This document shows positions 11,974 through 38,071 of a stretch of 64,000 bases of DNA, piece by piece (position 1 is the stretch's first letter; each line of letters begins with the position of its first letter). Where the stretch lies: positions 33,261-97,260 of the IMG/VR virus record IMGVR_UViG_3300046559_000436; one strand, given 5' to 3'. Below the pieces are notes generated by a model that saw nothing but the letters and a program-made list of their open reading frames with translations, did not search any database and was not told the origin of the DNA. Position numbers and translations under genes: made by a program. Source of the DNA: a virus.

Positions 11974-12140
11974 CTAGCCTGGGACCGACGGGTTCCGGGT
12001 GAGGTCGCGGGAAGGCCACCCGACGACCATCGGCTGTGCGTAGGCGCTACTGGGATGCTGCAGACCCAGGGTCGGTCCGAGTCCGGCGGTCGAGCTGAGC
12101 TAGGTGAAAGTGACCCCACCCACTTCCTCCGGTGCTCCGA

Positions 12141-12180
12141 GAAAACCCCTCTGTTGCCTGGAAAGCAGAGGGGTTTTCTT
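12141..12180 (+). terminator. Terminator closing the tRNA/ncRNA cluster
   Basis: gaaaacccctctg...cagaggggttttctt. Confidence 0.8.
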
Positions 12181-12246
12181 GTGCTTACGTGTATTCCGCC
12201 AGAGAAATAGAGCATGGTACAATTATATATAGAGAGGAGGACGCGT

Positions 12247-12456
12247 ATGCTGAACAGACCGGCAATTCGACAGCGCATGTCAGAAATGGGCATCAACCAG
12301 GCCACTCTGGCTAAGAAGATGCACGTCAAGGACATGCACGTGTCACTGTGGCTAAACAACCACAGAGCCCCAGACTTGCCCAACGTCATCAAGATCGCGG
12401 ATGCGCTTAACTGTAGTCTTGATGACATCGTGATCAGAGTCAGGAGCGCGGCGTGA
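12247..12456 (+). CDS. XRE-family HTH regulator
   Basis: GINQATLAKK...VS.W...RAPDL...KIADAL..SLD; RBS aggagg. Confidence 0.85.
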   Translation: MLNRPAIRQRMSEMGINQATLAKKMHVKDMHVSLWLNNHRAPDLPNVIKIADALNCSLDDIVIRVRSAA

Positions 12457-12529
12457 CCAACACCCCCGACATGGATGAGGGCTCTGACCGCCCAAGTCAG
12501 AGCCCTCGGATGATCACCCAGGAGATGAG

Positions 12530-15445: not shown

Positions 15446-15457
15446 CTTAATACCGTC

Positions 15458-15795
15458 GCTGAGCCCCCCAGGAGGAAGACTCTGGGGGGCTCAGCTGTAT
15501 CTCGGGCCTGCAGAAGACTAGGTCTTCCGGAGGACCCCCAGGGTCTTCCAACTACAAGGAGTCACGAGAAACAACGGGGAGTAGATGACGATTGCTCCCG
15601 GAAGAACCCAGGAAGACCCCTATATATATATAAGAAGACCTATAAGAAGACCTAATATCTTCCAAAAAAGTACGAAGTCAGAGGGGGTGGAAGACCTGAA
15701 GACCATAGAAGAAGTAGTTTCTTACGTACGCGCGCCTCTCACAGACGTGTGCGTGCAAGGACCCCCCGCTCTCCCCGGAGGGTCTTCCCGCCCCC
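15458..15795. repeat. Origin-like element A: terminator, then GAAGAC(C) iterons around a (TA)n tract
   Basis: About 10 gaagac/gtcttc copies and tatatatatata; immediately after the primase-helicase gene; second copy at 58.4-58.75 kb. Confidence 0.7.
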
Positions 15796-16029
15796 TGGGG
15801 CTCTCCGGGGAGCTGCGGCTCTCTGTGGGGTCTCTGGCGGCCTAGGAGCCCCTAGCCGGTCCTCTAGGGCCATCCGCCCCCGTACTGTTGCGGGAGACCC
15901 CACAGAGAGCCGGGACGAGCCCAGCCAGCGGCCTGGGTAGCCTGCCCCTGTGGGCGCTGCGCGGCTCCGGCGCGGTGGCCCTAGTGCCAGGGCTTGCGTC
16001 TATGGAAAGGTAGGTAGTTAGATGGGGAT

Positions 16030-16263
16030 ATGACGATGAGCACTGACCGACTGAACGAGCTTCGCACCTTCGATGCCGACGCCTCGACCCCCCAGCAGCG
16101 ACAGGACGCCGTCCTGGAACTGACCGCCGAGGTCCAGCGCTGCTGGGCCCGCATTGCCGAACTTGAGAAGGACTCGGACTTCCTCAACCGCCTCCATGCG
16201 GCCGGGGTCGACAACTGGGACGGCTACCACTTCGGATTCGGCAACGAGGACGACGACGAGTAG
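16030..16263 (+). CDS. Hypothetical protein
   Basis: Phage-type L.AAGVDNWDGY motif. Confidence 0.7.
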   Translation: MTMSTDRLNELRTFDADASTPQQRQDAVLELTAEVQRCWARIAELEKDSDFLNRLHAAGVDNWDGYHFGFGNEDDDE

Positions 16264-16341
16264 CTTGCGCTTGTAGCAAGCACAGTGCTGTAATAAGGAT
16301 ATTCCGCCCCGGGCTTCCGGGGCCCACCCCAGGAGGCACCG

Positions 16342-16563
16342 ATGGCGCTGAGTTACGAGGTACACGCTCGGAGCGAGTGGTTCCCGATCGACCTGTACGA
16401 CAACCCCGAGGGCAAGGACGCCGACGACAGCACCAAGGCGGTGATGGTGCAGATGGGCGTCCTCAAGTTCAAGACTCGTAAGATCTCCGAGGATGTCGCT
16501 CGGAAGCTCAACGAGGCTCTCATCAAGGGCCACGTCGAGGCCACCGAACGGCTCGGCCTGTGA
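16342..16563 (+). CDS. Hypothetical protein
   Basis: Promoter, aggagg RBS, codon bias. Confidence 0.65.
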   Translation: MALSYEVHARSEWFPIDLYDNPEGKDADDSTKAVMVQMGVLKFKTRKISEDVARKLNEALIKGHVEATERLGL

Positions 16564-16776
16564 ACGTCCCGCAGGATTCGGTCCCGGCGACTCCGTAACT
16601 TGACACAACGGCAACTGCTGTGATAAGATGGAGTCATCCAATCAGGAGGGAAAGCACCGTGATCGTTTACGGCGACAGCGACAACGGTGGACTGGGTGAC
16701 TCGGACGAGAACGGTCGTCCGCAGTCCCCTCGTCCACTCTGGTGGTAACTGCTCAACCCGGGCGCAAGCCCGGCCA

Positions 16777-16849
16777 GCCTCTGTAGCTCAGCGGATAGAG
16801 CGAGACCCTTCTAAGGTCGAGGTCGCAGGTTCGAATCCTGCCAGAGGCG
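16777..16849 (+). tRNA. tRNA-Arg(TCT)
   Basis: Canonical cloverleaf, loop ct tct aa, T-loop ggttcgaatcc. Confidence 0.92.
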
Positions 16850-16899
16850 CGCCATCGGACCCGCAAGGGGATCGAAGGGCAGACAGACAGGAGAATCAC

Positions 16900-21854: not shown

Positions 21855-22157
21855 ATGACCGACGTTACCAACGCCTACGGGCATAGGATCGGATCGCGCG
21901 GCATCACCACCCGCTCCTCTCTGCTGGATGCACTTCGGGGTCTGCTCAACCTGTACCCGGCCCACAACCTCCAGGTCAAGAACGTCACGGACATCGTCGG
22001 ATGTTCTCCGGCGGTCTTCTGGACCTACTTCGCCCACCTGGATGACGCGTACCGGGCCCTGGCCGACACCGTCGGGGACGGGGATGCCCAGACGCTCTGG
22101 GCGCGACAGGTCAAGCACATCGTCAAGGTGCTGGACGAGGTCGCCGAAACCAGCTGA
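21855..22157 (+). CDS. TetR-like HTH protein
   Basis: TR..LLDA...L...V.NV...VG.SPA.F..YF..LDD. Confidence 0.65.
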   Translation: MTDVTNAYGHRIGSRGITTRSSLLDALRGLLNLYPAHNLQVKNVTDIVGCSPAVFWTYFAHLDDAYRALADTVGDGDAQTLWARQVKHIVKVLDEVAETS

Positions 22158-22218
22158 CGCAAGTCAACGGGGCCGACCCAATGGGTCGGCCCCACCACTG
22201 TATCCGAAAGGGAGAAAC

Positions 22219-24396
22219 ATGACCGCCACCTTCCTCGGACGGACCCGAGTCGGAAGCACGTTCCTGCCCGAGCTGCCGCCGGACTGGCCGGTAGCGTTCG
22301 ACTATGAGACCGCTGGGCTGTACCCGGACGGAGACTCCGGTACCAAGACTCAGCCCGCATCCCCGGAGGGCAGGGCGTCGGCCCTGGCCATCGCGTGGTT
22401 CGACCCCGAGACCGGCGAGCTGGTCTCACACGCCTTCCCGTTCGACCAGGGCAAGATTGCCGGGAAGCCGGGTAGGGCGATCCGGGACCCCGAGACCGGT
22501 CGACAGAGCTTCTCTCCGATCCAGGCCACCCTGGACTTCGACAACCCCAACCTGGAACCGCAGTGGTACGTTGAGCTGATGGCCTGGCTCAGCCGTCGAC
22601 GGTATCTGGTGGCCCACAACGCCAAGTTCGACATGGCGGTCGCTCGGATCGGTCTGCGTGCGGACGCAGGGGGGTTCGGCGGAGAGGAGGGCCTCGGCGG
22701 GACCGAGCTGGATCAGGAAGGGACCTACATCTATGACACGATGCTGTCCCAGATGCTGTTGGCCCCTCTGGACATGCCGTCGCTGAAGCCTACGGCCAAG
22801 AAGCTGTGGGGTGACGACGAGACCGAGGAGCTGGAAGCCCTCAAGAAGGGGCTGAAGGCCAACGGCGTGGGGCTCGGTAAGCGATACGACCTGGTGGACT
22901 GGCCGATCCTGGCCAAGTACGCGGCCAAGGACGCCGAACTTACCATTCGCTTGCACCAGGTTCAGATGAACGCGGTCGACGACGAGATTGCGCCCCCGCT
23001 GTACGAGAGCCTGCTCGAAGACGACCTGCAGACCATGCGGGTACTGTACCGGATGGAGAAGCGCGGGCTGCCCTTCCTGAAGGAAGACGGTTTGGAGGTT
23101 GCCGAGGAGCTGCGTAAGCACGCCAAGATGGTGGCCAGCACGATGCCATTCGATCCCAGCAAGCTCGCTCAGGCCATCCGGTTCTTCTACGGGTGGAAGT
23201 GCAGCAACTCCGAAATCAGGTCCCAGAAGTTCCTGACCGGGGACGAGCGGGACTGGTCGAAATTCCTGTGCGACAAGAGTTGCGAGGAGTGCCAGGGGAA
23301 GAACGGGCTCGGACTGGAGCCGACCAGCCGGACCGAGAAGCGCGGCGACCCCCAGCTCAATCAGGCCGAGATCGACAAGCTGGCCAAGCAGGGTCAGCCC
23401 TGGATCAAGGAGTTCCAAGAGTACGTCAGCTGCATGTCGGCCATCGCCAAATGGTACGACGGCTGGTCCCTTCGAGTGGGCAAAGACGGTCGTCTTCGGC
23501 CGGTTTTCAAGCAAGGCAAGCAGGAGACCGACAAGTCGGGCGGAGCCAAGAGCAAGGAGGGCGGCACCAAGACGGGTCGGCTGGCGGTGGAGCGGGTGCA
23601 GATCCAGGCGGTTCCCCGTAAGACGCACCTGCCCATCCCGGCCCCCCACCCCAAGAAGCTGATCCGGCCGACCAGCGGCAAGGTCGTGTGGGAATCGGAC
23701 CTGCCCAACGGTGAGATGAGAATCGTCACTGTGATGTCCAACTGCAACGCGATGTGGGACATCATCGACAAGCTGGACCGAGAAAAGGACGCCAGCGGCA
23801 TTCACGGTCTGGTGTGCACCCAGATGTTCGGGTTGACACCTGAGGACGAGGATTTCCCCACCTTCAAGCAGGTGTCGAAGTGCATCGGTTTCGGGACGGT
23901 GTTCCAGTCCGGACCGCAGACCCTGGCTGACCAGGTCTACCAGCAGTGCGGCGTGAAGTTCAAGGTTCAGGAGATGAAGGACTTCATCGCGGACTTCCGG
24001 GGTAAGTTCCCGGAGATCCAGCAACTGTCCGACCTGGCGGTGAAGAAGGCCGATCAGTGGCGCGGGCTGGGTTACGTCACACTGATCAACGGTCGCAACC
24101 GTTGGTTCGAGCCACACGAGCGGGTGGCCACCTGCGCGATGTCGTCGGTTATTCAGGGTTCGCTCGCTGAGACCATGAAGACGTCCATGCGACAGGTGGA
24201 GGCTACTTACCCGGGCATCCTGATCAACCAGGTACACGACTCGGTATGGGTGGAGGTGGACGACAGCCCGGAAGGCGAGGCGCTGGCTTGGGACGTGGCG
24301 CGGATGGTTCAGAACACCTTCGAGGAGACGTTCGACGTACGCGAGCGACCCCGGATGAAGTTCCCGGTGACTCCGGAACGGCTTGACCTGAAGTGA
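22219..24396 (+). CDS. Family A DNA polymerase with 3'-5' exonuclease, candidate DpoZ
   Basis: FDYET.GL, AHNAKFD, YAAKDA (exonuclease); TKTGRL; motif A SDLPNGEMR; motif B KQVSK...FG..F; motif C QVHDS. Confidence 0.9.
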   Translation: MTATFLGRTRVGSTFLPELPPDWPVAFDYETAGLYPDGDSGTKTQPASPEGRASALAIAWFDPETGELVSHAFPFDQGKIAGKPGRAIRDPETGRQSFSPIQATLDFDNPNLEPQWYVELMAWLSRRRYLVAHNAKFDMAVARIGLRADAGGFGGEEGLGGTELDQEGTYIYDTMLSQMLLAPLDMPSLKPTAKKLWGDDETEELEALKKGLKANGVGLGKRYDLVDWPILAKYAAKDAELTIRLHQVQMNAVDDEIAPPLYESLLEDDLQTMRVLYRMEKRGLPFLKEDGLEVAEELRKHAKMVASTMPFDPSKLAQAIRFFYGWKCSNSEIRSQKFLTGDERDWSKFLCDKSCEECQGKNGLGLEPTSRTEKRGDPQLNQAEIDKLAKQGQPWIKEFQEYVSCMSAIAKWYDGWSLRVGKDGRLRPVFKQGKQETDKSGGAKSKEGGTKTGRLAVERVQIQAVPRKTHLPIPAPHPKKLIRPTSGKVVWESDLPNGEMRIVTVMSNCNAMWDIIDKLDREKDASGIHGLVCTQMFGLTPEDEDFPTFKQVSKCIGFGTVFQSGPQTLADQVYQQCGVKFKVQEMKDFIADFRGKFPEIQQLSDLAVKKADQWRGLGYVTLINGRNRWFEPHERVATCAMSSVIQGSLAETMKTSMRQVEATYPGILINQVHDSVWVEVDDSPEGEALAWDVARMVQNTFEETFDVRERPRMKFPVTPERLDLK

Positions 24397-24704
24397 CCAG
24401 CCCCTAGCGGGCCAGATCACCCCGCTGACCCCCGGAGGGCCTACAGTATGGGCATTGCTCCGGGGGAAAGCATGGTAGTACAATGGTGGTACACGGTGGG
24501 GCACGCGGCCCCACCCCGAACCCGAGAGGGAGTGATTATGGACAGCAGATGGACCACGAAGGATGACCTGGACGCGGCTTTCTACGGGATCGTGGGGCCG
24601 CAGGTCAACCGCATCGTTAGCATCAAGATCAGCGGTCTCATGAAGATCAGCGCGGCGGGCGGCCCCAGGCCGGACACCCGAGTGCCGGTGATGGTGGGTC
24701 AGCT

Positions 24705-25205
24705 GTGGAGATGACCAGCAAGGACGTCAAGGGAAAGACCACGGGCGTGCAGACCGAAGTGACCCTTCCGGTCAATCTGACCTTCAGCTATGATCCTGAG
24801 GACCCCTTCGCGTTCTACATGAAGTTCAACCCCAGCCGTTTCAATGAAGAGGTCCAGTGGGTGGGTTCCCTGGACCTCCTGCGCCAGGGTGTTCACGCTC
24901 CGGCCGGTCTTGCCGACATCCAGGTCTACCCAATCGACAAGGGTCAGATCGCGATTCGGCTCGAAGCCGAGGTAGGCCATTCGACCACCCGAGTGGCGGC
25001 CAAGGACATCAAGGCGTTCATCAGCGCCATCGACGAGGAGGAATCAGTGTCCAGTGTGACGATCGGTGAGGCGGTCGAGATTACTCTGGAGCAGTTTCTG
25101 GAGGATCTCGGCCTCTACCCCTATGACAACGGCCCGTCTCTCCCGCCGGGGTGGTGCCCGAACTGTATGCGAGTCCACTCCGGCAACGGATGCGGTGACG
25201 CCTGA
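24705..25205 (+). CDS. SsgA-like sporulation/cell-division protein (SALP)
   Basis: F.YDPEDPFA..M.F...V.W....DLL.QG...PAG.ADI.V.P. Confidence 0.8.
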   Translation: MEMTSKDVKGKTTGVQTEVTLPVNLTFSYDPEDPFAFYMKFNPSRFNEEVQWVGSLDLLRQGVHAPAGLADIQVYPIDKGQIAIRLEAEVGHSTTRVAAKDIKAFISAIDEEESVSSVTIGEAVEITLEQFLEDLGLYPYDNGPSLPPGWCPNCMRVHSGNGCGDA

Positions 25206-25470
25206 TGGGCTGGGGCAGCGCGGGGGCGACGATCTTCGACCCTACGATCGAGGCTCTGGTCAAATCCGGGACCACTGACGAGGTGCTGTTCGACACGGCG
25301 GTGAACCTCATCAACAACCTCCAGAGCGAGGACTGGGACACCGAGGGAGAGTCCCTGGATCACTTCAAGGACAATCCGGTGATCGTCCGGGCGTTCGCCA
25401 GCCTCGGAATCCGGTTGCACCACAGCACCTAGTATTGATCCGCAGCAAAACGCTGTGATACAATTGTCCT

Positions 25471-25968
25471 ATGGTCAGGACAGTGAACGTAGGTAGAGCG
25501 GCGAATGACAAAGTCGGGGTCCCCGAGGGGCAATGGGTCTCGGTGGACCCCGGCGACATTCACGTCGGGGTATGCTTCTGGAACGGCCCCGAGCCGCAGT
25601 GGGCCAGGGAATTCCGGCCAGACCAGTTCGTAGACTGGCTCGTGGATCAGATGCAGGCCGGTGAGATCGAGCTGGTCGTGTACGAGATCTTCATGCTTTA
25701 TGGTCAGAAAGCACACCAGCAGACAGGGTCCACCTTTGGGACCGCTGAATTGATAGGCGTCATGCGTCACTTGTGCCGAAGGGCGGAGGTGCCGTTTGTG
25801 GGCTATCAAGCCAGCGCCCACAAAGGTCTGTACAAGTGGGAGAAGTTCAAGCCACCGCACAAATCTTTGAGAGACTGGGTCAGCTACGGGCACGGTTCGC
25901 ACACGAAAGACGCAGAATGCTGCGGCTTTTACCACCTGATCAAGAATGGAGTGATTAAGAATGGCTGA
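25471..25968 (+). CDS. RuvC-like Holliday junction resolvase
   Basis: VSVDPG...GV, VVYE.F, ELIG, H..DA. Confidence 0.7.
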   Translation: MVRTVNVGRAANDKVGVPEGQWVSVDPGDIHVGVCFWNGPEPQWAREFRPDQFVDWLVDQMQAGEIELVVYEIFMLYGQKAHQQTGSTFGTAELIGVMRHLCRRAEVPFVGYQASAHKGLYKWEKFKPPHKSLRDWVSYGHGSHTKDAECCGFYHLIKNGVIKNG

Positions 25969-26311
25969 GAAGGCGCCTTTCAAGAAGAGCGGCGGGCTGT
26001 GGCACTCCCCCCCGAAGGAGAAGGACCTGAACAACCCGGATGTCCCTGTCCACAAGCGGCCCACGCTTGAGTGGCGCGAGGTCAAGGAGTGGCGTGAGAC
26101 CATGCTGGTGATCGGCCAGCAGCGCGGTCGGTCGGCGGCCTTCTTCCTGCTGTGCGGGGGCGGCGGGGCTGGCACGGACAGCTACCCGATGTTCATGTCG
26201 GACGCCACCGAGATGATGAAGACGGCGACCATCGTTCAGGGGACCGTCACTGGTCGTTGGACCATCGTCAAGAAGGGTCAGAACTACGGGCTGAAGTACC
26301 TGGGAGAGTGA
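25961..26311 (+). CDS. Hypothetical protein
   Basis: GRSAA.F...YPMFMSD...G.WT.VKKGQNYGL. Confidence 0.65.
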   Translation: MAEKAPFKKSGGLWHSPPKEKDLNNPDVPVHKRPTLEWREVKEWRETMLVIGQQRGRSAAFFLLCGGGGAGTDSYPMFMSDATEMMKTATIVQGTVTGRWTIVKKGQNYGLKYLGE

Positions 26312-26314
26312 AAG

Positions 26315-26794
26315 ATGGGTGGGAATCAGTACGTGAGGTTCCTGATCAAGGACGCAGCGGCGAAGCTCGACGAGGTGGTCCACGCTCTAGGGACCATCCA
26401 GTCGGACTTCGCTCAGGCAGGTGAGGTATCTGCCTCGCATCGGGCCACGAAGCTGGCAAACGACGTCATAGCGTACAAGGAGTCATTGATGAGCAAGATC
26501 GGCGATGAGCTTGGCGGCGAGGTGGTGGAGAAGATGCGCCAGGCCACTGGGGCCAAGCCCAGACCGCAGCGGCCCTGCATGTTCTACCTGATGCGCAAGC
26601 ACGACCACTCCGGTGTGAGTGGCACGGGGGTGGTGGCCGAGGGTATCGAGTTCTCGGACGGCCGGGTGGCCATGCGATGGGTGACCCGGATGGCAGGATC
26701 GACCTGCACCTACGACTCGATTGACGATGTGATCGAGATCCATGGTCACGGCGGAAGCACGGAGGTGATCTATGGCCGACCTGGCCGGGATTAA
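26315..26794 (+). CDS. Hypothetical protein
   Basis: C-terminal phage-type domain SGVSGTGVVAEG.EFSDG...IHGHGG.T. Confidence 0.7.
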   Translation: MGGNQYVRFLIKDAAAKLDEVVHALGTIQSDFAQAGEVSASHRATKLANDVIAYKESLMSKIGDELGGEVVEKMRQATGAKPRPQRPCMFYLMRKHDHSGVSGTGVVAEGIEFSDGRVAMRWVTRMAGSTCTYDSIDDVIEIHGHGGSTEVIYGRPGRD

Positions 26795-26911
26795 GGAGCT
26801 GGTCGTGACGGTGTGCGACGCGTTCGGGATCACTCGGGACGAGTTTCTGAAAATCGTCAAAGAAGAGGCCGAAGATATGGGCCTCACGATTCTGGAAGAG
26901 GTGCTGGCGCA

Positions 26912-27484
26912 ATGTTGAACTCTGATGTGATGGCGTGGGGGTCCCTGGTCACCTGCGTCACAACGTACGTCGGGTACCAGGCAGGGTCGTTGAAGGCCCG
27001 GGTCGTGGCGGACCGGGAGTACCGGGACCCCGAGACCGGGATGCTGACTCGGAAGGGCTTCGAACATCGCGCCCTGAAGATGCTGGCCAAGAGCTGCAAC
27101 TACATCGTGGTGATGGTCGACCTCAACGACCTGAAAAAGGTCAACGACGAGTTCGGCCACGCGGCGGGCGACATGTTCATCCGCGAGCAGGCTGGTCGAA
27201 TCAGTGACTGGGCCCGTAGGAAGAACGGGGTGGCGGCCAGGCTCGGCGGGGACGAGTTCGTGGTGATCGTCACCGGCTCTGCCGACACCACGGCGCTCAA
27301 GGAAGATCTGAACCGACCGATCTGCTGGGAGGGCGAGACCAGGTACTGGACCGCCAGCGTCGGATTCTCCTGGATCTCGATCGGGGTGCTCAAGAGCGAC
27401 CGGAAGAACTGCCTGTCCAAGGCTCTCGGCAAGGCTGACCAGGACATGTACAAGAACAAGGGCGAGGGGCGCAGCCGCCGCTAG
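26912..27484 (+). CDS. GGDEF-domain diguanylate cyclase with N-terminal hydrophobic helix
   Basis: DPETGML.R, VDLNDLKKVNDEFGHAAGD, ARLGGDEF, ASVG, ADQDMYKNK. Confidence 0.9.
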   Translation: MLNSDVMAWGSLVTCVTTYVGYQAGSLKARVVADREYRDPETGMLTRKGFEHRALKMLAKSCNYIVVMVDLNDLKKVNDEFGHAAGDMFIREQAGRISDWARRKNGVAARLGGDEFVVIVTGSADTTALKEDLNRPICWEGETRYWTASVGFSWISIGVLKSDRKNCLSKALGKADQDMYKNKGEGRSRR

Positions 27485-27951
27485 TTGCGCCAGCGCAAAA
27501 CGCCGTGATAAAATAGTCTCAGACGCCGGAGGGTCCGGCGGTCGGAAGGAGCACGGGATGGCGCGGTTCAAGGTCGAGGTCGAGGTGTCCAGCCGAGGTC
27601 TGGCGGTGGACGTCGAGCACGGCATCCGGGAGATCCTGTCGGATCACAACTACAACCCGCAGAACCTGCAGGTGAAGACGATGCCGGAACCGACGCGGCT
27701 GGCGGACTTCCCGTCGCAGAACGTCCGGCGACGGATCGGGGACGAGACCTACCGGGTGGTGATTCCCGGCCTCTTCAAGGAGGGCAGGGAGGTCACGGTC
27801 CCCATCTGGGAGACGGACGTCGACCTGGAGCTGCTGGACCACTACCTCAACGGCGGCTGACGAAAGCCGGATGCGGGGGGTCGATCTCTCAAATGTGAGG
27901 GGTCGACCCCCTGGGTCTTACTTTCCGAACAGACCTAAGAGGAGACAGAAG

Positions 27952-29148
27952 ATGACCGGGAAGTTGATCGTCGTAGCGGACGGGTTCTACGGAAGCTGCG
28001 GCAAGGGCCACGTCACCGAGATGCTGTTGAACTCGGACGACAGCCTGGTTCAGGCGAACGTTCGAGTGGGCGGCCCGAACGCAGGGCACATCGTGTACGG
28101 GCCGCAGTGCCCGAGCTGGTGCGGGATCGGCGACGAGGGCCCGAGCGATGTCCCGTGGGGGGCGGAGCCCGAGGAGGACCACCTCGTGGTGGGCGGAATC
28201 CGTCTGCACCCCTGGAAGCTGCGTCAGGTGCCGGTCGGGGCGGTAGTGAACCACTACTGCAAGTTGGTGATCGCGGCCGGGTCGGAGATCCACCTGCCGA
28301 CGCTGCACGAGGAGATCAAGGCGCTGGAGGACGCTGGCCACCGCGTCATCAACCGGCTCTACATCGACTCGGCGGCTACGGTTCTGACTGAGCGTCACAA
28401 GGAGCAGGAGAAGCACCGCGACCTGACCGGCAAGCTCGGTTCGACGGCCAAGGGGATCGGCGCCGCTCGGGCGGACCGGATCTGGCGGACGGCGGAGACC
28501 TGGGGCGAGCACGTCAAGGACCACAACGATTCCCAGTGGACGACGGACAACACGGCGGACTACCTGTACCAGCTGATGAGCCGGGCCGGTGGCACGGTGA
28601 TCATCGAGGGCACCCAGGGGTTCGGGCTGGGTCTGCACACCGAGAACTACCCGCAGGTGACCAGCACGGATTGCCGGGCGGTGGACTTCCTGGCACAGGC
28701 CGGACTGTCGCCCTGGCACAAGGCGGTCGAGAAGTTCGAACCGTGGGTGGTGCTGCGGACCAGGCCGATCCGGGTGGCCGGGAACAGCGGCCCGATGAAG
28801 GGTGAGACCACCTGGGAGGAGATCGGGCTTCGGCCCGAGAAGACCACGGTCACGCGGAAGGTGCGCAGGGTCGGCGAGTTCGACGCCGGGCTGGCGAACC
28901 GGGCGATCGACGCCAACGGCGGTCACAACGTGGCCAGGGTGGCGCTCACGATGGTGGATCACGTGATCCCGGAGCTGGCGGGGGCGGACTTCATCGAGGA
29001 CCTGACGCCCGAGGTGGTGACGAGGCTGAAGGGGTTCATCGAGGACATCGAGATCAAGCTCAGCGGCCAGGTGATCAGCTGGGTGGGGACGGGGCCGGAC
29101 ACCGGACTGTGGCTGGTGGACGAAAAGGGCGACCGACTGCCCTGGTGA
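27952..29148 (+). CDS. purZ: PurZ (PurZ0-type) 2-amino-deoxyadenylosuccinate synthetase
   Basis: GFYGSCGKG (Ser in place of the PurA Asp of GDEGKG), GGPNAGH, GST.KGIG, IEGTQG, YP..TS, PIRVAGNSGP, TTVTRKVRR, LTMVD. Confidence 0.85.
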   Translation: MTGKLIVVADGFYGSCGKGHVTEMLLNSDDSLVQANVRVGGPNAGHIVYGPQCPSWCGIGDEGPSDVPWGAEPEEDHLVVGGIRLHPWKLRQVPVGAVVNHYCKLVIAAGSEIHLPTLHEEIKALEDAGHRVINRLYIDSAATVLTERHKEQEKHRDLTGKLGSTAKGIGAARADRIWRTAETWGEHVKDHNDSQWTTDNTADYLYQLMSRAGGTVIIEGTQGFGLGLHTENYPQVTSTDCRAVDFLAQAGLSPWHKAVEKFEPWVVLRTRPIRVAGNSGPMKGETTWEEIGLRPEKTTVTRKVRRVGEFDAGLANRAIDANGGHNVARVALTMVDHVIPELAGADFIEDLTPEVVTRLKGFIEDIEIKLSGQVISWVGTGPDTGLWLVDEKGDRLPW

Positions 29149-29208
29149 GGTAAGACCTGGGGCGGCTCCGGACGAGGAGCCGCCCCGTTCAGTAGAAGGA
29201 GCAGGGAA

Positions 29209-29790
29209 ATGACGCAGTTCGAAGAGATGGCGGGTCCGATCGAGGTGGACGGCGTGCAGATCGCCGACCCCAAGGTTTCGGACTTCTTCAAGAGCGGGTT
29301 GAGGTTCGTCCGGACGGAAGGTCAGCCGGACGGTAGCGTGAAGTACTTCAGCGAGAAGACGCCGGACCCGCTGACGGCGTTCTCGGGGGCCACGCACATG
29401 ATCAGCAAGGAGGAAGCCGTGGATCAGCTGGGGTTGACCAAGGAGAGCGACGAGACGACGGAGAGGATCGCCGACCTGAAGGAGTGGTGGGTGGAGATGG
29501 CGTCCATGGACGTCGGGATGGTCGCCGAGAAGGCGGTGACGTACGGCAGCAACTCGCTGGAGCAGCTCGGTCGCAAGATGGCTCAGCTGGGCGGCCGGAA
29601 GGTGGTCAGCAGCGAGGAGGCGCAGGAGCTGGGCTGCTGGGTCTACCTGACCGGCAAGGTAGAGCGCTGGACCGACGCGGTGATGCGGGGGGAGCGCCCG
29701 AAGGACGACACTCTGACGGACATCATCGCGTACGCCACGATGGCCACGCGCATCCGTCAGGCCGGGGGGTGGCCGGACAGCCGGGGGTAA
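29209..29790 (+). CDS. DUF1599/Nmad1-like all-alpha nucleotide-modification-associated protein
   Basis: K...YG.......K..R....DDTLTDIIAYA; adjacent to purZ. Confidence 0.6.
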   Translation: MTQFEEMAGPIEVDGVQIADPKVSDFFKSGLRFVRTEGQPDGSVKYFSEKTPDPLTAFSGATHMISKEEAVDQLGLTKESDETTERIADLKEWWVEMASMDVGMVAEKAVTYGSNSLEQLGRKMAQLGGRKVVSSEEAQELGCWVYLTGKVERWTDAVMRGERPKDDTLTDIIAYATMATRIRQAGGWPDSRG

Positions 29791-30985
29791 TTGCGCCGGA
29801 GTAAGACCCGGGTGTAGGATAGGGATATCGCCGGGGGGACAACCTCCCGGCTCTCCCGAAAGAAGAGGCGATGGCTGACACTACGGTGCAGATGAGCATC
29901 TCCCTTACGATCGCGTCAGGGGCGGTCGGAGGTGATGGGACGCCGATCACCCCCGACAACGTCGGGGCGTACCTAGTAGGTGCGTCCTACTACATCACGC
30001 AGTACCAGGGCGTGGAGATCACGCAGGCGACGGTAACCGCCGTCAACCCCAGCTGAACCTGTAGACAACCCGAAAGGAAACCTGAGATGGCGAACGTGCG
30101 AGTTCCGGTCCTCGTGATCTTCGAGTACGACGACGAGGCCACCACGGGGCCGAACTACGGCGATGAGCCGATGACCCCGGAGTTCATCCGGGAGTACATC
30201 AAGGGTGCGGGCGAGCACCTGATCGTGCCGAGCGTGACCGTGTGCGAGGCGGAGATCGGCAAGGTTCGCAAGACGGACGAGGACGGCAAGTTCTCGTCCA
30301 TGTGACGCAAACCGGGGCCCCCTGTGACACAAGACACAGGGGGCCCTGTTGTGTGGGAACAAAAGAGTGATATACAATTGTCATAGAGACAACAAGAAGG
30401 AGGCAGTGATGACCAAGGACGAGGCCAGTGGGCTGGTGGGCAAGTTCCGGGAGAACTTTCCGGAGGCGCTTCGGAGCGTGGAGGCGGCACAGGCGGCCAC
30501 TCCGCTCGTGAAGGAGCTGCAGCACCGGTTCCCAAACGAGGTGATCACCGAGCAGATGGCGGACGCCGCCCGGAAGATCGGTGACGCGAACGGGCTGCAC
30601 CCCGGCCTGGTCATGACCGTCCTCCTGGCGGCCGAGAAGGAGGGCTGGGAGTATGTTGGCTGACGCGTGCTGTAGCAGATGCGGAAAGCCCTTCGTGAAG
30701 GGGGACCGGATCGTCCACGATCCGTGTTGTCTGGCTCCTGACTGCGATAGCCTGATGGCGAGATCTCACTTCCGGTGCCTCCCCGTCGGGCTCCAGAGAC
30801 TGAAGGACGACCTGTGACCGATGAGGTGACGTGCTGGCGGGGGAAGTGCGACAACGACCCCAGCGAGTACGTCCTGTGCGCCAAGTGGCAGCGGCGCGAG
30901 AGTCCCTGCTATGAAGGACCCGAGATCAAGAAGAGCTTCTGGGCGAGGTTCGTCCGGTTGCTCGTCAACAAGAAGGAGAGCTGAG

Positions 30986-31225
30986 ATGCGCAAGATTGTC
31001 ATGGGCGCGGCTGCGATCGCGGCAGTTCTGAGCCTGGGCGCGTGCGGCGGACCGTCTGTGGACGGGACGGTGCAGTCCAAGTCGTCCCACCACGACAAGA
31101 AGGGTGACAGCTACACGGTCACCCTCAGGACCAGGGCTGGCAAGACCGCAACGCTGACGGTGTCGTCGAAGACGTTCAGGTCGTGCGACGTGGGCGAGAC
31201 CTACTCGAAGTGCCGGAAGGGCTGA
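30986..31225 (+). CDS. Small lipoprotein
   Basis: Signal peptide with lipobox LGAC. Confidence 0.65.
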   Translation: MRKIVMGAAAIAAVLSLGACGGPSVDGTVQSKSSHHDKKGDSYTVTLRTRAGKTATLTVSSKTFRSCDVGETYSKCRKG

Positions 31226-31230
31226 CCGAA

Positions 31231-31608
31231 ATGAATGTCGAGATCACGACGTTCGGATTCCGGCACGGGGACCCTCCGGCCGCACACCTCACGCTGGACC
31301 TGAGGCAGCACTTCCGCGACCCGCACGTCAGCAAGGATCTGCGGTACAAGACTGCCGAGGACGCCGACGTTCGCGAGAACGTGCTGAAGACGCCGGGCGT
31401 GGAATTCCTGCTGGTCTCCGCGTCCTCGCTGGTGGAGGCATTCGCGCAGGACCCCAAAGACCACGACCTCAGGATCGCGGTCGGGTGCGCGGGCGGCAGG
31501 CACCGGGCGGCCACGGTCGGAATGACGCTGGCCGAGAGGCTGGAGGCGTGGGGGCACAAGGTGACCCTGACGCACCGGGACATCAAGAAGGGGGTCGTGG
31601 CGCGATGA
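31231..31608 (+). CDS. RapZ C-terminal-domain protein
   Basis: ITTFGFRHG.P, DLR..FRDP, IAVGCAGGRHR, HRD. Confidence 0.85.
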   Translation: MNVEITTFGFRHGDPPAAHLTLDLRQHFRDPHVSKDLRYKTAEDADVRENVLKTPGVEFLLVSASSLVEAFAQDPKDHDLRIAVGCAGGRHRAATVGMTLAERLEAWGHKVTLTHRDIKKGVVAR

Positions 31609-32033
31609 ACGACCATGCGTCGGGGATCGCGCTGGCCTACGCGTCGCTGAGGGCGGCTGCGCATGTCGGGGATTTCTGGGTGCAGACCGACTGCCAGGCC
31701 GTACGCAAGGGTGATCCGGGGTGGGCCGGGCGTCTGGCGTGTGGCAGGCACGCGGGCACGTACGTGGGGACGCAGCTGCTGGCGCTGGTGGTGGCGGGGG
31801 TCCTGGCAGGCCACGGGTGGGGTCTCTCCGGCCTCACGTGGGGGCTGACGGCCTCTGGGGCCACCCACTACTGGGCGGACCGGAGGAAGCCCCTGGAGAG
31901 GTTGTCAGACAGGGTGGGGAAGGGCGAGTTCTACCGTAGGGGCGAGGGTCTGGGTCGAGGCTCATTCCACCTCGACCAGGCATGGCACCATGGATGGGAA
32001 TTCATCGCGGCACTGATGATTGGGGCGATGTGA
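31605..32033 (+). CDS. DUF3307-like membrane protein
   Basis: H.GDF..QT, H...Y, HY..D, DQA.H. Confidence 0.7.
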   Translation: MNDHASGIALAYASLRAAAHVGDFWVQTDCQAVRKGDPGWAGRLACGRHAGTYVGTQLLALVVAGVLAGHGWGLSGLTWGLTASGATHYWADRRKPLERLSDRVGKGEFYRRGEGLGRGSFHLDQAWHHGWEFIAALMIGAM

Positions 32034-32428
32034 TGGGAGTGCCGAGAAACCTGGACTCCGAAGGTGCGATCGTGGTAGTGAGCGGTAGCCACTCGTATTG
32101 CAACGGATGCGGCGAGGAGGTGTCGGACTGGGGTCCGAACCGCAAGAGGCACGTGGACGTGGCGGGTTACTCCGGACGACCGGGCGAGGGATGTCAGAAG
32201 AGGTTCGTCGGAAAGACGACGGACCAGCTGCATTTCGGGCCGGACGAGGTGGCGGGGGTGTGGAAGAACCTGCCGTTCGTGTGGCTGTACCTGCGACCGG
32301 AAGCCAACCCGCGACTGAGGGTCACCAAGGTGGGGTCGTAGCGACAGCGCTTGACGCAGGAGCAAACGCCGTAGTAAGATGGGTACAACAGCGGGGGGCC
32401 ACTCCGCTAGGAGCGAGGAGGATCTGAT

Positions 32429-32626
32429 ATGGGTTGGGGTCGTAAGAGCAGCGGTGACGAGAACCAGGGCTCTAAGGAGGCTGGGGAGGGTGCCGAGCGC
32501 GCGGGCGGCACGAACTGGTTCTCCAAGAAGGAGAACGCCGGAAGCAACAGCTCGTCGAGCAACGACGGGAAGGCCGGTTCGGGCGGCACGCTGAGTGACT
32601 CCGAGCTGGAGTCGAACGGCTGGTAG
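32429..32626 (+). CDS. Small Gly/Ser-rich protein
   Basis: Own promoter (ttgacg..taagat), gaggagg RBS. Confidence 0.6.
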   Translation: MGWGRKSSGDENQGSKEAGEGAERAGGTNWFSKKENAGSNSSSSNDGKAGSGGTLSDSELESNGW

Positions 32627-32702
32627 AACCCCGGCACAGGGTGGCCGGGGGAGACCCCGGCCACCCACGCGGTGTTAGAAAAATCACCAAGGAGGATCTT
32701 AT

Positions 32703-33587
32703 ATGGGCACGAAGCTCGTGTACATGGCCATGCCGCTCGATTTCACGACGGAGAGCGGCGACCGTCCGTTCGTGGACTTCGTCGAGAACGACCTGAAGGC
32801 CAGCAAGCACGTGGTGTACCGGCCGGACCAGAGCTTCACGTTCCAGAAGGGCACGGAGCCCAGCGAGGTGGTGCAGGCCGTCAACAACGCGGCCATCAAC
32901 GGGGCCAGCGGCATGGTGGCGTTCCTCCCGAAGGGGACGCAGACGATCGGGGTGCCGATGGAGATCCAGTCGGCGATCTCGGCTGGGAAGCCGGTCGTCG
33001 TGGTGACGGACCACTCGGACAGCTGGGTCGTGGCGGGCTGGACCAAGACGAACGGCGTGAAGGTGGTGGAATTCAACGCGAGCCAGATCCGAGGAGGGGT
33101 CGGCTGGTTGAACGAGACCATGAGCCACCGCGATGGGTGGACGTTCAAGCAACCCGTAGAGAACCCGGTCGTGTTCGAGGCCATGTCGGAGGACGCGGAA
33201 CTGCCGATCAGGGCATACGCGACGGACGCCGGGTTCGACCTGTACGTGTCGCGGAACACGTTCATCCCGGCCGGTGGGTTCGCGGACGTGCCGTGCGGGG
33301 TGGCCATGCAGATCAACGCCGGGGAGTGGGCGCTGATCACCGGACGCAGCAGCTCGATCAGGAAGAAGAAGCTCCACGTGATCAACGGCGTGATCGACGC
33401 CGGATACAGCGGAGAGCTGTTCGCGGGAGTGCAGAACCTGAGTTCGCACACGGTCACGATCACGAAGGGCGAGCGGGTGGCCCAGGTGATCCTGATGGGG
33501 GCGGCGGCCAACGGGAGGGCAGTAAGGTTCGGCAAGGTGGCACAGGCACCGCGTGGGAACAACGGCTTCGGAAGCAGCGGACGATGA
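32703..33587 (+). CDS. Fusion of a nucleoside-deoxyribosyltransferase/hydrolase-like domain with a trimeric dUTPase-like domain (candidate DutZ)
   Basis: N-terminal VYMA.P...T.GV.MEI..A...GKPV; C-terminal DAGFDL, GRSS, GVIDAGYSGEL, RVAQ, RG..GFGSSG. Confidence 0.85.
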   Translation: MGTKLVYMAMPLDFTTESGDRPFVDFVENDLKASKHVVYRPDQSFTFQKGTEPSEVVQAVNNAAINGASGMVAFLPKGTQTIGVPMEIQSAISAGKPVVVVTDHSDSWVVAGWTKTNGVKVVEFNASQIRGGVGWLNETMSHRDGWTFKQPVENPVVFEAMSEDAELPIRAYATDAGFDLYVSRNTFIPAGGFADVPCGVAMQINAGEWALITGRSSSIRKKKLHVINGVIDAGYSGELFAGVQNLSSHTVTITKGERVAQVILMGAAANGRAVRFGKVAQAPRGNNGFGSSGR

Positions 33588-35093
33588 CCGGAGACGATGA
33601 GCAGTACGACTTCGGGTTCTACGTGGAGAAGATCGACCACGACGACTACGGCGAGAAGATGGCCGAGAGCCTGTGGAAGGTCAGCCTGCCCCATCAATGC
33701 GGCAGATGGCGGATCGACAACACCAACATCTACCTGGAGGGCAGCACGAAAGCGGAAGCGGTCGAGGAGCTGGAAGCATTCATCAGCCAGGCCAAGAAGG
33801 CCCTGGACGCGCTGAACCGGGGAGAAGAGCACGGAACTGACGACTGAGTAGAGCGGAACCGGGTTGGCTGGGCTCGTCCGAACCGAAGGTTCGGGAGGGT
33901 TCGAGAACCCGGTTCCGATCAGGACCCATCGGTTCCGCCGGTGAGTTCCGATCGGAACCGGAAACGGAACTCGTTCGGCGCGAAGTGTCGGGCGGCCGGA
34001 ACTAAGGAGCAGAGGATGAACAGTTCGGAACTGAACGACAGGGTAGCGGAACTGGAACGTTCCGCCGGAGGTCGGTTGGGCAAGGTTCTGCCGGTGAAGG
34101 TGCGGATCGCGGTCGGCGATCGGGTGATGGTCATGGACCTGGAACCCGGGATGCTGACCACGAAGGGCTGGGGTTCCGAACCGGAACCGGCCGTCATCTT
34201 GCTGGACCTGACCTGATGGACCTGATCGAGGTCGAACAGGAGAAGGACGAGTGGGAGAAGGGGCCGTCGTTCCGGTGGCGGGTGACCGTACTGGGGACGG
34301 AGTCTCACAAGACGGTATGGGCGGAAACGGAGGAAGAGGCCCTCAAGCAGGCCAAGTTCCTGGTAGGGGAGGCCCTGGTCAAGATGATCGGGTGCGACTC
34401 GTGGTGCTGTTACGACGACGGAGAGGGATGAGATGGACATCAAGATCTCGATCGGGTTCGGGCGAAGGGGCCAGCACTCGATGAGGGTTCAGAACCAGAA
34501 CCTGGAAACTCAGGTGCAGGTTCTGACGGGAGCGTTGACCAAGGTCAACGAGGAGAACAAGGAGTTGAAGGAGCAGCTGTCGGAAGCCCTGCGGGAGAGG
34601 GTGGCCAAGGGGCACCGGATGACCAGCCAGGGCCTGAGGCTGGTTAAGGGACCGGTCGTGAGAGCGGTGGAAGGCGTGCCGAACCGATACCAGATCACGG
34701 AAGGAGACGAGGGGGCGTGATCGGGCAGGGGTACCGACCGAAGGTCGGCGAAGAGCTGGTGGTGGTGGTCCCGAGCTACCACCGGCGGGAGCCGGGGGTG
34801 TCGACGGCAAAGGTGGTGAAGGTAGTCACGGAGTGGGTGTACTTCGATAACGTACCGGGGCTGACCGAGCCGAAGTTTCGGATCCGGACGCAGTGCACCG
34901 AGAACCGGCTCAACTACAACGCCAGGTACCTGACGAAGGAGCAGCACGAGACCGAGAGAAGGAGGTCGGAGGCGGAGAAGACGCTGAGAGAGTACAAGGC
35001 GGTGCCGGACCCGTGGTCGGCACTGTTCAAGGATGACGAGAAACTCATCAAGCTGGCGGACGCGGTCAGGAAGATCATGGAGGAGGAAAACGG

Positions 35094-35891
35094 ATGAAGA
35101 TCGTTGAGCCCGTGGTGCGGATCATCTCGAAGCCCGAGATCAACTGGGACGAGATCGAGGCGCATCTGGTGGGGGACGTGGGGGCGGCCGACGGGGGGCG
35201 GTGGACATGGGATCGGGAGGAGAACGGGTCGGCGGATTCGGAGAGCCTGATCGAGTTCGCAGGAAGGAAGTGCTACCGGAGCTACGGGGTGGGGTTGAAC
35301 CCGAACATCAAGAAGGTGCGAGAACACCAGGACGAGTACCTCAATAACCTGATCAGATCGGGCCACGGGAGCGTGTTGGAACACGCCAATTACACGCTGG
35401 TGCTGCACAACGTCAGCAGGGTGCTGACACACGAACTGGTCAGGCACCGGGCAGGGACGGCGTACAGCCAGGAGAGCCTGCGGTACGTCAGGCTGACGGA
35501 GATTCCGATGTGGCTGCCGGAGTGGGTCAAGGAGGACCCGGACGCCATGACGAAGGTGGTCGAGCTGGTCGAGCAGATGGAGGAGTTCCAGGCATGGGGG
35601 GCGGAGCACTGGGGGCTGGACTCGCCCGGGACGGAGTTCCGGACGAAGAAGGAGGTGACGTCGTTCATGCGTCGGCTGGCGCCGGAGGGACTGGCCACGA
35701 GCGTAGTGATGACGGCTAACGTGAGAGCGATCAGGCACATCATCGAGATGCGGACGGCAAAGGGGGCGGAGGAGGAGATCCGGGAGGTGGCCGGGAAGAT
35801 CGGCAAGCTGATGGCGTGGGAGGCCCCGCAGCTGTTCGGGGACTACTTGGTCAACGACGGGGAGTGGCTGTCAGACAACAAGAAGGTGTAG
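35094..35891 (+). CDS. thyX: Flavin-dependent thymidylate synthase
   Basis: GH.SVLEH, RHRAGTAYSQESLRY, N.RA.RH...R, EEIR. Confidence 0.95.
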   Translation: MKIVEPVVRIISKPEINWDEIEAHLVGDVGAADGGRWTWDREENGSADSESLIEFAGRKCYRSYGVGLNPNIKKVREHQDEYLNNLIRSGHGSVLEHANYTLVLHNVSRVLTHELVRHRAGTAYSQESLRYVRLTEIPMWLPEWVKEDPDAMTKVVELVEQMEEFQAWGAEHWGLDSPGTEFRTKKEVTSFMRRLAPEGLATSVVMTANVRAIRHIIEMRTAKGAEEEIREVAGKIGKLMAWEAPQLFGDYLVNDGEWLSDNKKV

Positions 35892-35925
35892 TTGCGCAAA
35901 GCGCAGCTTAAGTGTAAGATGGGGT

Positions 35926-36000
35926 GGCTGAGTGGAGCAGGTCGGTTAGCTCGCTGCGCTCATAACGCAGAGGTCGTGGGTTCGAATCCCACCTCAGCCA
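35926..36000 (+). tRNA. tRNA with CAT anticodon (elongator Met or Ile2)
   Basis: ctgcg-ct cat aa-cgcag; canonical T-arm; paired G1-C72. Confidence 0.9.
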
Positions 36001-36058
36001 CGAAGGCCAGCCGGAGCCTTTGGCCTTTATTAAAGAAACACATTGAAATCCGGCACTT

Positions 36059-36131
36059 CGGATTGTGGCGCAGCTGGTAGCGCACCCGCTTTGGGAGCGG
36101 GTGGCCGTCGGTTCGAATCCGACCAATCCGA
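36059..36131 (+). tRNA. tRNA-Pro(TGG)
   Basis: C1 start, cccgc-tt tgg ga-gcggg. Confidence 0.92.
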
Positions 36132-36775
36132 CGTATCGAGAAGGCCCCCGTCGAAGATAGTGATGGGGGCCTTTTTCGTAGAGGGGAGCTTGACACACAG
36201 GAAAATCATGAGATAGAATAGTGATATCAGGCAGAGCGAGGCACCCGAAAGGCGAAGAGATGGCCACGACGGTCAAGGAACTGATAGAAGAGCTGCAGGG
36301 GCTTGCCCGAGAGCACGGCGAGGACCTGGAGATAGTGACCAGGACCTTCAGCCACGGGGCGGACGACTGGGACTACCCGGAGGGGTGCTCGGCGTACGTG
36401 GAGGATTTCAAAGCGCCCTGGTGGCATGGGACCACCGGCAAGAAGCTGGTATTCGACACTCCGTGAAGGAGAAGGAGCGGCAATGAAGACATGGGTCATC
36501 GTAAGAGAGCTGGCCAACGGAAAGCTGATCGCGGAGGGGCCGGACGGGAGGGTGTGGGGAAGCTATGATCGGACGATCCCGGCGGACGGGTCCAAGGATG
36601 AGAACTGGACCCACGAACTGGTGACGGACATCAGCGGGCTGGTGAGGGCGTCGGTGGTCCGGATGACCAAGGACGGCGGCCACGCGGAATCGCGGTTCGA
36701 ACGCAAGATCTGAGTTGAACAAGGGGGCCGCCTGGGAGGGCGGCCCCCGGCAACGCGACCAAAGGAGTGGGCATA

Positions 36776-38071
36776 ATGATCGAGCGATACAGCACGGACC
36801 GAATGCGCGTGATCTGGTCGGACGCTGGGACCATGTCACTGTGGTCGACGGTGGAGCGGGCCATGGCCGAGGCGCAGGGCGCACCGGAGCACGTGGTGAA
36901 GGAGCTGTGGGAGAAGCGGCTGCCGATGGCTGAAGCCGGAGTGGTGGAGTGGCGCTGTCGCGAAGCGACAACCCGCCATGACGTGGTGGCGTTCGTGGAG
37001 CTGATGAGAGAATCGGTCAGCCTGGAAGCGGCCAGGTGGGTGCACAGGGGGGTGACCAGCTCGGACCTGGTGGACTCGGCACAGGCGATTCGGGTCAAGG
37101 AGTCGCTGGGGATGATCGCGAAGGCTGGCCAGGGACTGACGAACGAGCTGGGGGCGCTGGCCCAGCGATGGTCGAGCCAGCCGTGGATCGGGCGGACGCA
37201 CGGCCAGTGGGCGCAGGAGACGACGTTGGGTCACCTGTGGTCGAACCGGGCCATGGCGGTCAACAAGGCCGTTCTCAAGGTCAGGGCCGCCATGGGCGAG
37301 CAGATGGTGATGATGTCGGGGCCGGTGGGGGACTACAAGACGCTGGGAGGTGAGAAGGAAGGGAAGGCAGCCGAACAGGCGTTCGGGCGACTGGTGAAGA
37401 TGCCAGTGGCCGCGAAGTCGACGCAGGTCGTTGACAGGGGCGGGCTGGCGGAGGCCATGTGGGCGTGCGAGAGGCTGATGGCCGCGATAGCACAGGTGGC
37501 GACGGACGTGCGGCTGATGGGGCAGAGCGAGGTGGGGGAGGTCGCCGAAGCATTCGCCGCGAAGCAGCGGGGGTCGTCGATCATGGCCCACAAGAACAAC
37601 ACGGTCGGGGCGGAGAACCTGATCGGGCTGGAGCGGGTGGTAAGGGCCAACGTGATGCCGGTGGTGGAGGGCGTGGCGACGTGGGGGATGCGGGACATCA
37701 CACACTCGGCGGTGGAAAGGGTGTGCGTGCCGCTGGTGCTGGGGACGACTGAATACGGGGCGCTGAGGTGCGCCAAGCTGATGGCGGGACTGGTCGTCCG
37801 ACCTGAAAGGGCGATGGACAACATCGACAAGACGGGCGGGGTGCTGGAGGCGGGGGGGCTGGTCACGTGGCTGACGGAGAACGGGGCGGGACCGAAGGAA
37901 GCGTGGGAGGTGGTCCACGAGGCAAGTAAGGAGGTGGAGGTGGGCGACCTGTGGGTGGGGTCCAGCCCGATGGACCTCAAGCAGATGACGCAGCGGATGG
38001 TCAACAAGAAGGTCAAGAACAACGAGGCCGGTTGGTCGGAGTTTAAGGGAAACTGGGCGGAGAAGCAATAG
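36776..38071 (+). CDS. purB: Adenylosuccinate lyase
   Basis: MIERYS, E..TRHDV.AF, H.G.TSSD..D, GRTHGQ.A, SGPVG, STQ...R, GSSIMAHKNN, RDI.HS..ER. Confidence 0.9.
   Translation: MIERYSTDRMRVIWSDAGTMSLWSTVERAMAEAQGAPEHVVKELWEKRLPMAEAGVVEWRCREATTRHDVVAFVELMRESVSLEAARWVHRGVTSSDLVDSAQAIRVKESLGMIAKAGQGLTNELGALAQRWSSQPWIGRTHGQWAQETTLGHLWSNRAMAVNKAVLKVRAAMGEQMVMMSGPVGDYKTLGGEKEGKAAEQAFGRLVKMPVAAKSTQVVDRGGLAEAMWACERLMAAIAQVATDVRLMGQSEVGEVAEAFAAKQRGSSIMAHKNNTVGAENLIGLERVVRANVMPVVEGVATWGMRDITHSAVERVCVPLVLGTTEYGALRCAKLMAGLVVRPERAMDNIDKTGGVLEAGGLVTWLTENGAGPKEAWEVVHEASKEVEVGDLWVGSSPMDLKQMTQRMVNKKVKNNEAGWSEFKGNWAEKQ

Follow-up and report, generated by a model that had tools for sequence, protein, structure and literature searches.

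A 64,000-nucleotide stretch of an uncultured phage genome (bases 33261-97260 of the 97,260-bp IMG/VR record IMGVR_UViG_3300046559_000436; CheckV completeness, 96%), referred to here as the window, probably carries the module for nucleotide metabolism and replication of a phage that infects a sporulating actinomycete and builds 2-aminoadenine (Z) into its DNA with the help of a PurZ0-type synthetase. The module also encodes an adenylosuccinate lyase (PurB), for which we propose a role in the second step of Z synthesis. The PurZ0 gene set for the exchange of adenine for Z is a known type, and this phage is a divergent member of it and not a new kind of system. When 50,697 phage records were searched with Megablast, a sole match of 233 bases was returned, located inside purZ of Streptomyces phage Keanu, and the phage therefore has no close cultured relative.

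The assignment of the synthetase to PurZ0 is well supported by its phylogeny, its best structural match, a retained guanine-binding Asp, and its gene context (DutZ and DmtZ without DatZ or MazZ). The protein (P0002, 398 amino acids; 27952-29148, + strand), a predicted N6-succino-2-amino-2'-deoxyadenylate synthase (product, dSMP), reached 320.8 bits with the NCBIfam PurZ model NF038379 (cut-off, 300) and stayed far under the cut-off of every PurA model, with 188 bits for the archaeal-type PurA models. The top PDB match was 7VF6 (E value of 4e-78, 266 bits), which is PurZ0 of Gordonia phage Archimedes (PMC12884076); archaeal PurA (9e-31), phiVC8 PurZ (2e-24, 89 bits), and S-2L PurZ (9e-15, 58 bits) were matched as well. 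An earlier note on this DNA, made from the letters alone, had read a PurZ0-type enzyme from two motifs and had named phylogeny against PurA, PurZ, and PurZ0 as a check. In a maximum likelihood tree with E. coli PurA as the sole outgroup and root, and with no archaeal PurA included, the window enzyme was placed in a 27-row clade that included the Ghobes and Wayne PurZ0 (ultrafast bootstrap, 100; Shimodaira-Hasegawa-like approximate likelihood ratio test [SH-aLRT], 99), apart from the PurZ of phiVC8, DMU1, and S-2L, which formed their own clade (100/100). Inside the PurZ0 clade, 12 rows that included the window enzyme and the Hiyaa-group Streptomyces phages formed a clade of their own (100/99).

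Alignment confirmed both motifs and showed that they separate the enzyme types. The P-loop reads GDEGKG in E. coli PurA, GSTGKG in PurZ, GSEAKG in PurZ0, and GSCGKG in the window (27991-28008), where Ser thus stands in place of the catalytic Asp13 of PurA. The TKLD site of E. coli is LNF[CA][NQ] in PurZ, with Asn or Gln replacing the guanine-specifying Asp in phiVC8, DMU1, and S-2L; this Asp is retained in the PurZ0 of Ghobes, Wayne, and Hiyaa (LTM[VL]D or LSFAD) and in the LTMVD of the window. The STGP site of E. coli corresponds to G[FW]G in PurZ, GTGP or ATSP in PurZ0, and GTGP in the window. The guanine-nucleotide pocket is kept in the aligned window enzyme, as both the TKLD Asp and the STGP Thr are present. 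Tong et al. 2023 reportedly found that PurZ0 uses GTP, and the window PurZ0 would be expected to use GTP as well. One sentence in PMC12884076 gives the preference of PurZ0 and PurZ as ATP and GTP, respectively, which is the reverse of what the original PurZ0 work reportedly found and probably a wording slip.

The longer open reading frame (ORF) at 27871-29148 matched PF00709 at 5.8e-29. The start of purZ0 is most likely the ATG at 27952 instead of 27871, because an 18-bp GC-rich hairpin with a T-rich tail (27874-27913, + strand; found by a terminator-like scan and in the sequence) and an AGAGGAG ribosome-binding site fall between both candidate starts; the public gene call also begins at 27952. 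An insert of about 36 amino acids follows GPNAGH (28096-28206; residues ~49-85 of P0002) and contains CPxWC ... DH ... GHPW, a Cys/His pattern that suggests a small metal site. A shorter version of the insert is present in Hiyaa-group PurZ0, and the insert is absent from Ghobes, Wayne, PurZ, and PurA.

The divergent PolA, the dUTPase-like enzyme, and the ThyX that the earlier note had listed for this region were all present. The dUTPase-like enzyme is a 294-amino-acid DmtZ-DutZ fusion (32703-33587, + strand; PF05014 and PF00692), with a putative NDT-like dAMP hydrolase/transferase and a putative dUTPase-fold dATP/dGTP/dUTP diphosphatase as its two parts. Wayne has a biochemically characterised DmtZ-DutZ, to which the window protein shows 35% identity from end to end (5e-56). 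Mutagenesis or modelling showed the importance of six residues in Ghobes DmtZ, namely, the catalytic triad Tyr6, Asn77, and Glu103 plus Asp12, Pro57, and Trp124 (PMC12884076); all six are kept in the aligned N-terminal domain of the window protein. The same paper found dutZ in 98 of 98 PurZ0 genomes and dmtZ in 85, fused in 77 of these, and the window, with dutZ present and dmtZ fused, fits this majority pattern. The polymerase (21928-24396, + strand; PF00476 and PF01612) is a family A DNA polymerase with a 3'-5' exonuclease of the DpoZ lineage. Its best NCBIfam model was NF038381 (phage_DpoZ_2; 242.4 bits), PolA models gave at most 74 bits, and it is 27% identical to Wayne DpoZ (9e-64). ThyX (35094-35891, + strand), a flavin-dependent thymidylate synthase, matched PF02511 (7e-41) and TIGR02170 (118.9 bits; cut-off, 87.9). 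The whole 97-kb record gave no match to HD/DatZ (PF01966), nor to DUF550/MazZ-like proteins (PF04447) or DUF5664, the last two being weak absences, as their controls matched nowhere. The absence of the three families agrees with the PurZ0 pattern of PMC12884076.

From these genes, the following pathway can be proposed. The DutZ domain would convert dATP and dGTP to dAMP and dGMP, and the fused DmtZ domain would destroy dAMP with the release of adenine and could transfer the deoxyribose-5-phosphate onto free Z. PurZ0 would produce dSMP from dGMP and Asp, and the phage PurB would take off fumarate from dSMP to yield dZMP. Host kinases would raise dZMP to dZTP, the DpoZ-like PolA would insert Z opposite T, ThyX might aid the dTMP supply, and the virion DNA would be expected to contain Z. 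The earlier note had described a more autonomous dZTP pathway. This held for the PurB step, which is phage encoded, and was otherwise overstated: a search of the whole record for a guanylate kinase was negative, so the autonomy is limited to one step.

The closest characterised systems are those of the Gordonia phages Ghobes and Archimedes and of Arthrobacter phage Wayne (PDB 7VF6, PMC12884076). Like the window, they have a PurZ0 in which Asp13 is replaced by Ser and the guanine-binding Asp is kept, DutZ and DmtZ (fused in the window as in Wayne), and a DpoZ-lineage PolA, and they lack DatZ and MazZ. Ghobes further resembles the window in having a gene annotated as adenylosuccinate lyase and a homologue of the gene located after PurZ0, although its PurB is shorter (377 amino acids) and very divergent. 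The window PurZ0 is, however, only about 40% identical to the enzymes of Ghobes and Wayne and differs from them by its insert and GSCGKG; no DUF5664 was found for the window phage, and its genome (97 kb) is about twice as large. The nearest cultured relatives are the Streptomyces phages Hiyaa, Keanu, Galactica, and Spocter (genus Hiyaavirus). Their gene order is that of the window (PolA ... PurZ0, the adjacent conserved gene, the NDT-dUTPase fusion ... PurB), and their annotations read 'PurA-like adenylosuccinate synthetase' and 'PurB-like adenylosuccinate lyase'. Identity to the window amounts to about 50% for PurZ0 and 36% for PurB, and nucleotide similarity is limited to the 233 bases given above. 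The PurZ/DatZ/MazZ cluster of S-2L and phiVC8 follows the same logic, with dGMP converted to dZMP via a PurA-like enzyme and dATP removed, but it relies on an ATP-type PurZ (Asp of TKLD changed to Asn or Gln) and on DatZ and MazZ in place of DutZ and DmtZ. The annotations of S-2L and of a 12.8-kb phiVC8 stretch include no PurB, and the literature gives this step to the host.

The full adenylosuccinate lyase that the earlier note had recognized from SSIMAHKNN proved to be real. The gene (P0122, 431 amino acids; 36776-38071, + strand) starts with the ATG at 36776, preceded by an AAGGAG ribosome-binding site, and encodes a phage-lineage PurB, the proposed dSMP lyase. The protein matched Lyase_1 (4.5e-33) and TIGR00928 purB (1.2e-80), and its top PDB sequence matches were bacterial adenylosuccinate lyases (7e-54). 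Its AlphaFold2 (AF2) model (predicted local distance difference test [pLDDT], 82) aligned over the full length to the lyases of S. aureus (2X75) and T. maritima (1C3C), with TM scores of 0.78-0.79 over 410-433 columns. No match to PF10397 (ADSL_C) was obtained for this protein, and the resulting idea of a truncated PurB was rejected, as the AF2 model comprises the full-length fold. The signature loop is mobile in adenylosuccinate lyases, and it forms the one long low-confidence stretch of the model. H68, H90, H142, S267, S268, K273, N275, E280, and R315 are invariant in the phage PurB alignment, and R306 is kept in the window; catalytic roles of these residues are reported from work on the B. 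subtilis and T. maritima enzymes. The phage PurB looks catalytically intact.

The canonical signature SSxMPHKxNP has changed in the window PurB to SSIMAHKNNT. Both prolines are replaced, which is seen only in the window sublineage. At 7 positions with at least 90% conservation among other PurBs, the window PurB and its three closest aligned relatives (P0123, P0124, and P0127) depart from nearly all of these enzymes; the 7 positions include both loop prolines and the Glu of WHERD (WGMRD in the window). These substitutions fit either changed specificity or relaxed constraint, and a specialisation of the lyase for the diamino-deoxy substrate, as raised by the earlier note, is only hinted at by them. 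The loss of both loop prolines in this sublineage is a modest new observation. Cellular PurBs (TIGR00928) have the same fold and catalytic residues, and actinobacterial forms are the nearest cellular sequences in the tree; the window PurB is about 36-38% identical to cellular PurBs and differs from them by its score under the equivalog cut-off, the missing PF10397 match, and the lost prolines. Hiyaa PurB, unlike that of the window, retains a canonical SSxMPHKxNP loop.

To test the linkage of PurZ0 and PurB, we surveyed the 80 IMG/VR loci closest to the window PurZ0 and, in a second survey, screened 80 viral PurB loci for a PurZ-like gene within the locus. Among the 80 PurZ0 loci, 77 contained DutZ or DmtZ-DutZ, 35 a related PolA, and 31 a PurB within 10 kb of PurZ0; the PurB share was 8 of 14 when both flanks of a locus covered 8 kb or more. 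ThyX was found in none of the 80 loci within 10 kb of PurZ0 and is therefore a local addition and not a conserved part of the Z module. Measured from the purZ0 start, PurB was located past DmtZ-DutZ at 3-5.5 kb downstream (8.8 kb in the window), at 5.6-8.5 kb upstream, or within the cluster at 1.3-1.5 kb downstream; some loci had PurB directly between the PurZ0-adjacent gene and DmtZ-DutZ. It occurred across most PurZ0 subclades, the Wayne-like subclade excepted. Among cultured phages, PurB-like genes are already annotated in Hiyaa, Keanu, Galactica, and Spocter of Streptomyces and in six records of Gordonia phages (Ghobes, Archimedes, Frizzle, and Sapo). It is thus not unusual for a phage to encode PurB beside PurZ0. 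The literature assigns the conversion of dSMP to dZMP to host PurB or 'uncharacterized phage proteins', and none of the papers that our literature searches returned dealt with a Z-pathway role of a phage PurB. The earlier note had likewise stated that characterised Z-phages normally borrow the host PurB.

In PurB trees, the PurZ0-linked PurBs fell into two phage clades, which together with three actinobacterial PurBs made up a set with an SH-aLRT of 100, apart from the other cellular and viral PurBs. A single origin of all PurZ0-linked PurBs was considered and not established (support of 84-91, with Ghobes on a very long branch). The nearest relatives of the window PurZ0 and of the window PurB were found on contigs of the same sizes (95,672 and 85,119 bp), which suggests co-inheritance of the two genes. 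PurB was 12-17 identity points more diverged than PurZ0.

Several observations weigh against the interpretation of the locus as a PurZ0-type Z module with its own lyase. The P-loop of the synthetase is GSCGKG and not the usual PurZ0 GSEAKG. The polymerase stays below the 350-bit cut-off of NF038381, which the Wayne and Ghobes polymerases pass and the Hiyaa polymerase (191.9 bits) does not. PurB scored 271.5 bits on TIGR00928, under the equivalog cut-off of 326.2, which Hiyaa PurB passes with 335.2 bits. PurB is a common auxiliary gene of PurZ-less phages, with 55 of the 80 viral PurB loci having no PurZ-like gene in the locus. Finally, PurB is missing from many PurZ0 phages, Arthrobacter phage Wayne and those related to it among them; therefore, the host enzyme can be enough, and a higher flux may be all that the phage copy provides.

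The last two observations also favour the explanation that competes best with a Z-specific lyase, namely, that PurB is unrelated to Z and serves as a general purine auxiliary gene (conversion of SAICAR to AICAR and of adenylosuccinate to AMP) that merely shares the early region with PurZ0. The layout of the window is compatible with this, as purB lies 7.6 kb from purZ0, beyond two tRNA genes and a promoter-like site of its own (TTGACA-18-TAGAAT, 11/12 consensus matches; 36190-36219, + strand), which precedes two small ORFs and purB and was identified by consensus match only. However, the PurZ0-linked PurBs cluster in phage clades and are not scattered among cellular ones, several loci have PurB in the cluster at 1.3-1.5 kb past the PurZ0 start, the predicted destruction of dATP and dAMP fits poorly with the aim of raising adenine nucleotides, and no other purine synthesis gene was present among the window ORFs scanned. 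We consider a purine auxiliary role unlikely, although it deserves some weight.

A PurZ0 pathway might also be present together with a PurB that, in the window sublineage, is decaying or repurposed and no longer acts on succinyl-purine nucleotides. The low TIGR00928 score, the long branch of the sublineage, and the 7 changes at conserved positions, both loop prolines and the WHERD Glu among them, could be read in this way. Against decay stand an open frame that has counterparts of 70-75% identity in five related metagenomic proteins, the retention of all residues taken to be catalytic, and the confident full-length predicted fold, and we regard loss of the lyase function as improbable. An ordinary PurA-PurB pair that completes the branch from IMP to AMP in a phage with normal adenine would match the exactly two-step AMP branch, the PF00709 match, and the archaeal-type PurA scores, but it is hardly credible for a synthetase that has Ser for Asp13, passes the PurZ cut-off and none of the PurA cut-offs, is nested among PurZ0 sequences, and is accompanied by DmtZ-DutZ and a DpoZ-lineage polymerase. 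The PurZ0-type Z module thus remains our preferred interpretation of the locus.

Directly 3' of purZ0 lies a gene for a 193-amino-acid protein (29209-29790, + strand), whose C-terminal ~100 amino acids form a conserved four-helix domain (AF2 model with four helices; pLDDT, 83). The protein is 43% identical to Ghobes gp51 (1e-21), the shared part being the C-terminal domain, and the same domain was detected in related loci (for example, at 12103-12666 of locus L004 and 8009-8389 of locus L077). In 75 of the 80 IMG/VR loci, PurZ0 was directly followed by this domain. Four of the five loci without it were Wayne-like, and there the characterised dATP/dGTP diphosphatase DUF5664 took its place; hhalign gave no relation between the two domains. 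The 193-amino-acid protein had no Pfam or PHROG match. Foldseek gave no match for the domain, and VIA-align returned generic helical matches only (Z scores of at most 6.5), with 2P06 (AF_0060) as the sole whole-domain row. DUF1599/Nmad1 and DUF6378 appeared as weak atlas leads. A MazG-like reading of the domain was kept as a lead only, given the generic helical matches and the lack of a family match. From its position, the domain may act in the nucleotide pool in analogy to DUF5664, and it is a candidate for a missing member of the PurZ0 pathway. The presence of this uncharacterised domain after PurZ0 in nearly all loci is, again, a modest new finding.

Taken together, these data permit a more far-reaching but tentative interpretation. 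The PurZ0-linked PurBs may be dSMP lyases of a phage lineage that was inherited together with PurZ0, the window sublineage, with its lost loop prolines and the WHERD Glu changed to Met, may have been re-tuned to the 2-amino-2'-deoxy substrate, and the four-helix domain may be a new nucleotide pool enzyme in the role that DUF5664 has in Wayne-like phages. We would rather doubt that all of these parts hold jointly. The window and the survey show that a sizeable share of PurZ0 phages encode their own lyase, often inside the cluster; therefore, the second step of Z synthesis would often be phage encoded in actinophages. The lyase could belong to a minimal phage-only gene set for dZMP synthesis, and its role can be tested in the cultured phages Hiyaa, Keanu, and Galactica (Streptomyces) and Ghobes (Gordonia). 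The known logic of Z-DNA synthesis is unchanged by these findings, to which the conserved gene after PurZ0 adds a further candidate member of the pathway.

The module is part of a + strand gene run that spans the window from about 4 kb to about 46 kb, and the G+C content of the stretch is about 63%. Between PolA and purZ0, two further genes were found, an SsgA-like sporulation/division gene (24705-25205), which points to a sporulating actinomycete as the likely host, and a gene for a stand-alone GGDEF diguanylate cyclase (26813-27484). The two genes suggest an interference with the development of the actinomycete host. In Hiyaa, genes for ThyX, SsgA-like, and GGDEF proteins are not annotated in the 25-kb stretch around purZ0. 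The gene immediately 5' of thyX (34717-35097) encodes a small protein that has a phage ProQ C-terminal-like domain (PF24203, 8.8e-13). The two tRNA genes in the interval between thyX and purB are those for tRNA-Met and tRNA-Pro (35926-36001 and 36059-36132); the window contains six tRNA genes in total, the other four at 11055-16850. An FtsK/SpoIIIE-family ATPase (46211-48076, - strand) is located where the gene direction switches. On the same strand, a gene for a polynucleotide kinase-phosphatase (AAA_33 and HAD_PNKP; 51382-52314) adjoins a gene for a T4 Rnl1-type RNA ligase (52687-53838), and the two look like a tRNA repair pair against anticodon nucleases.

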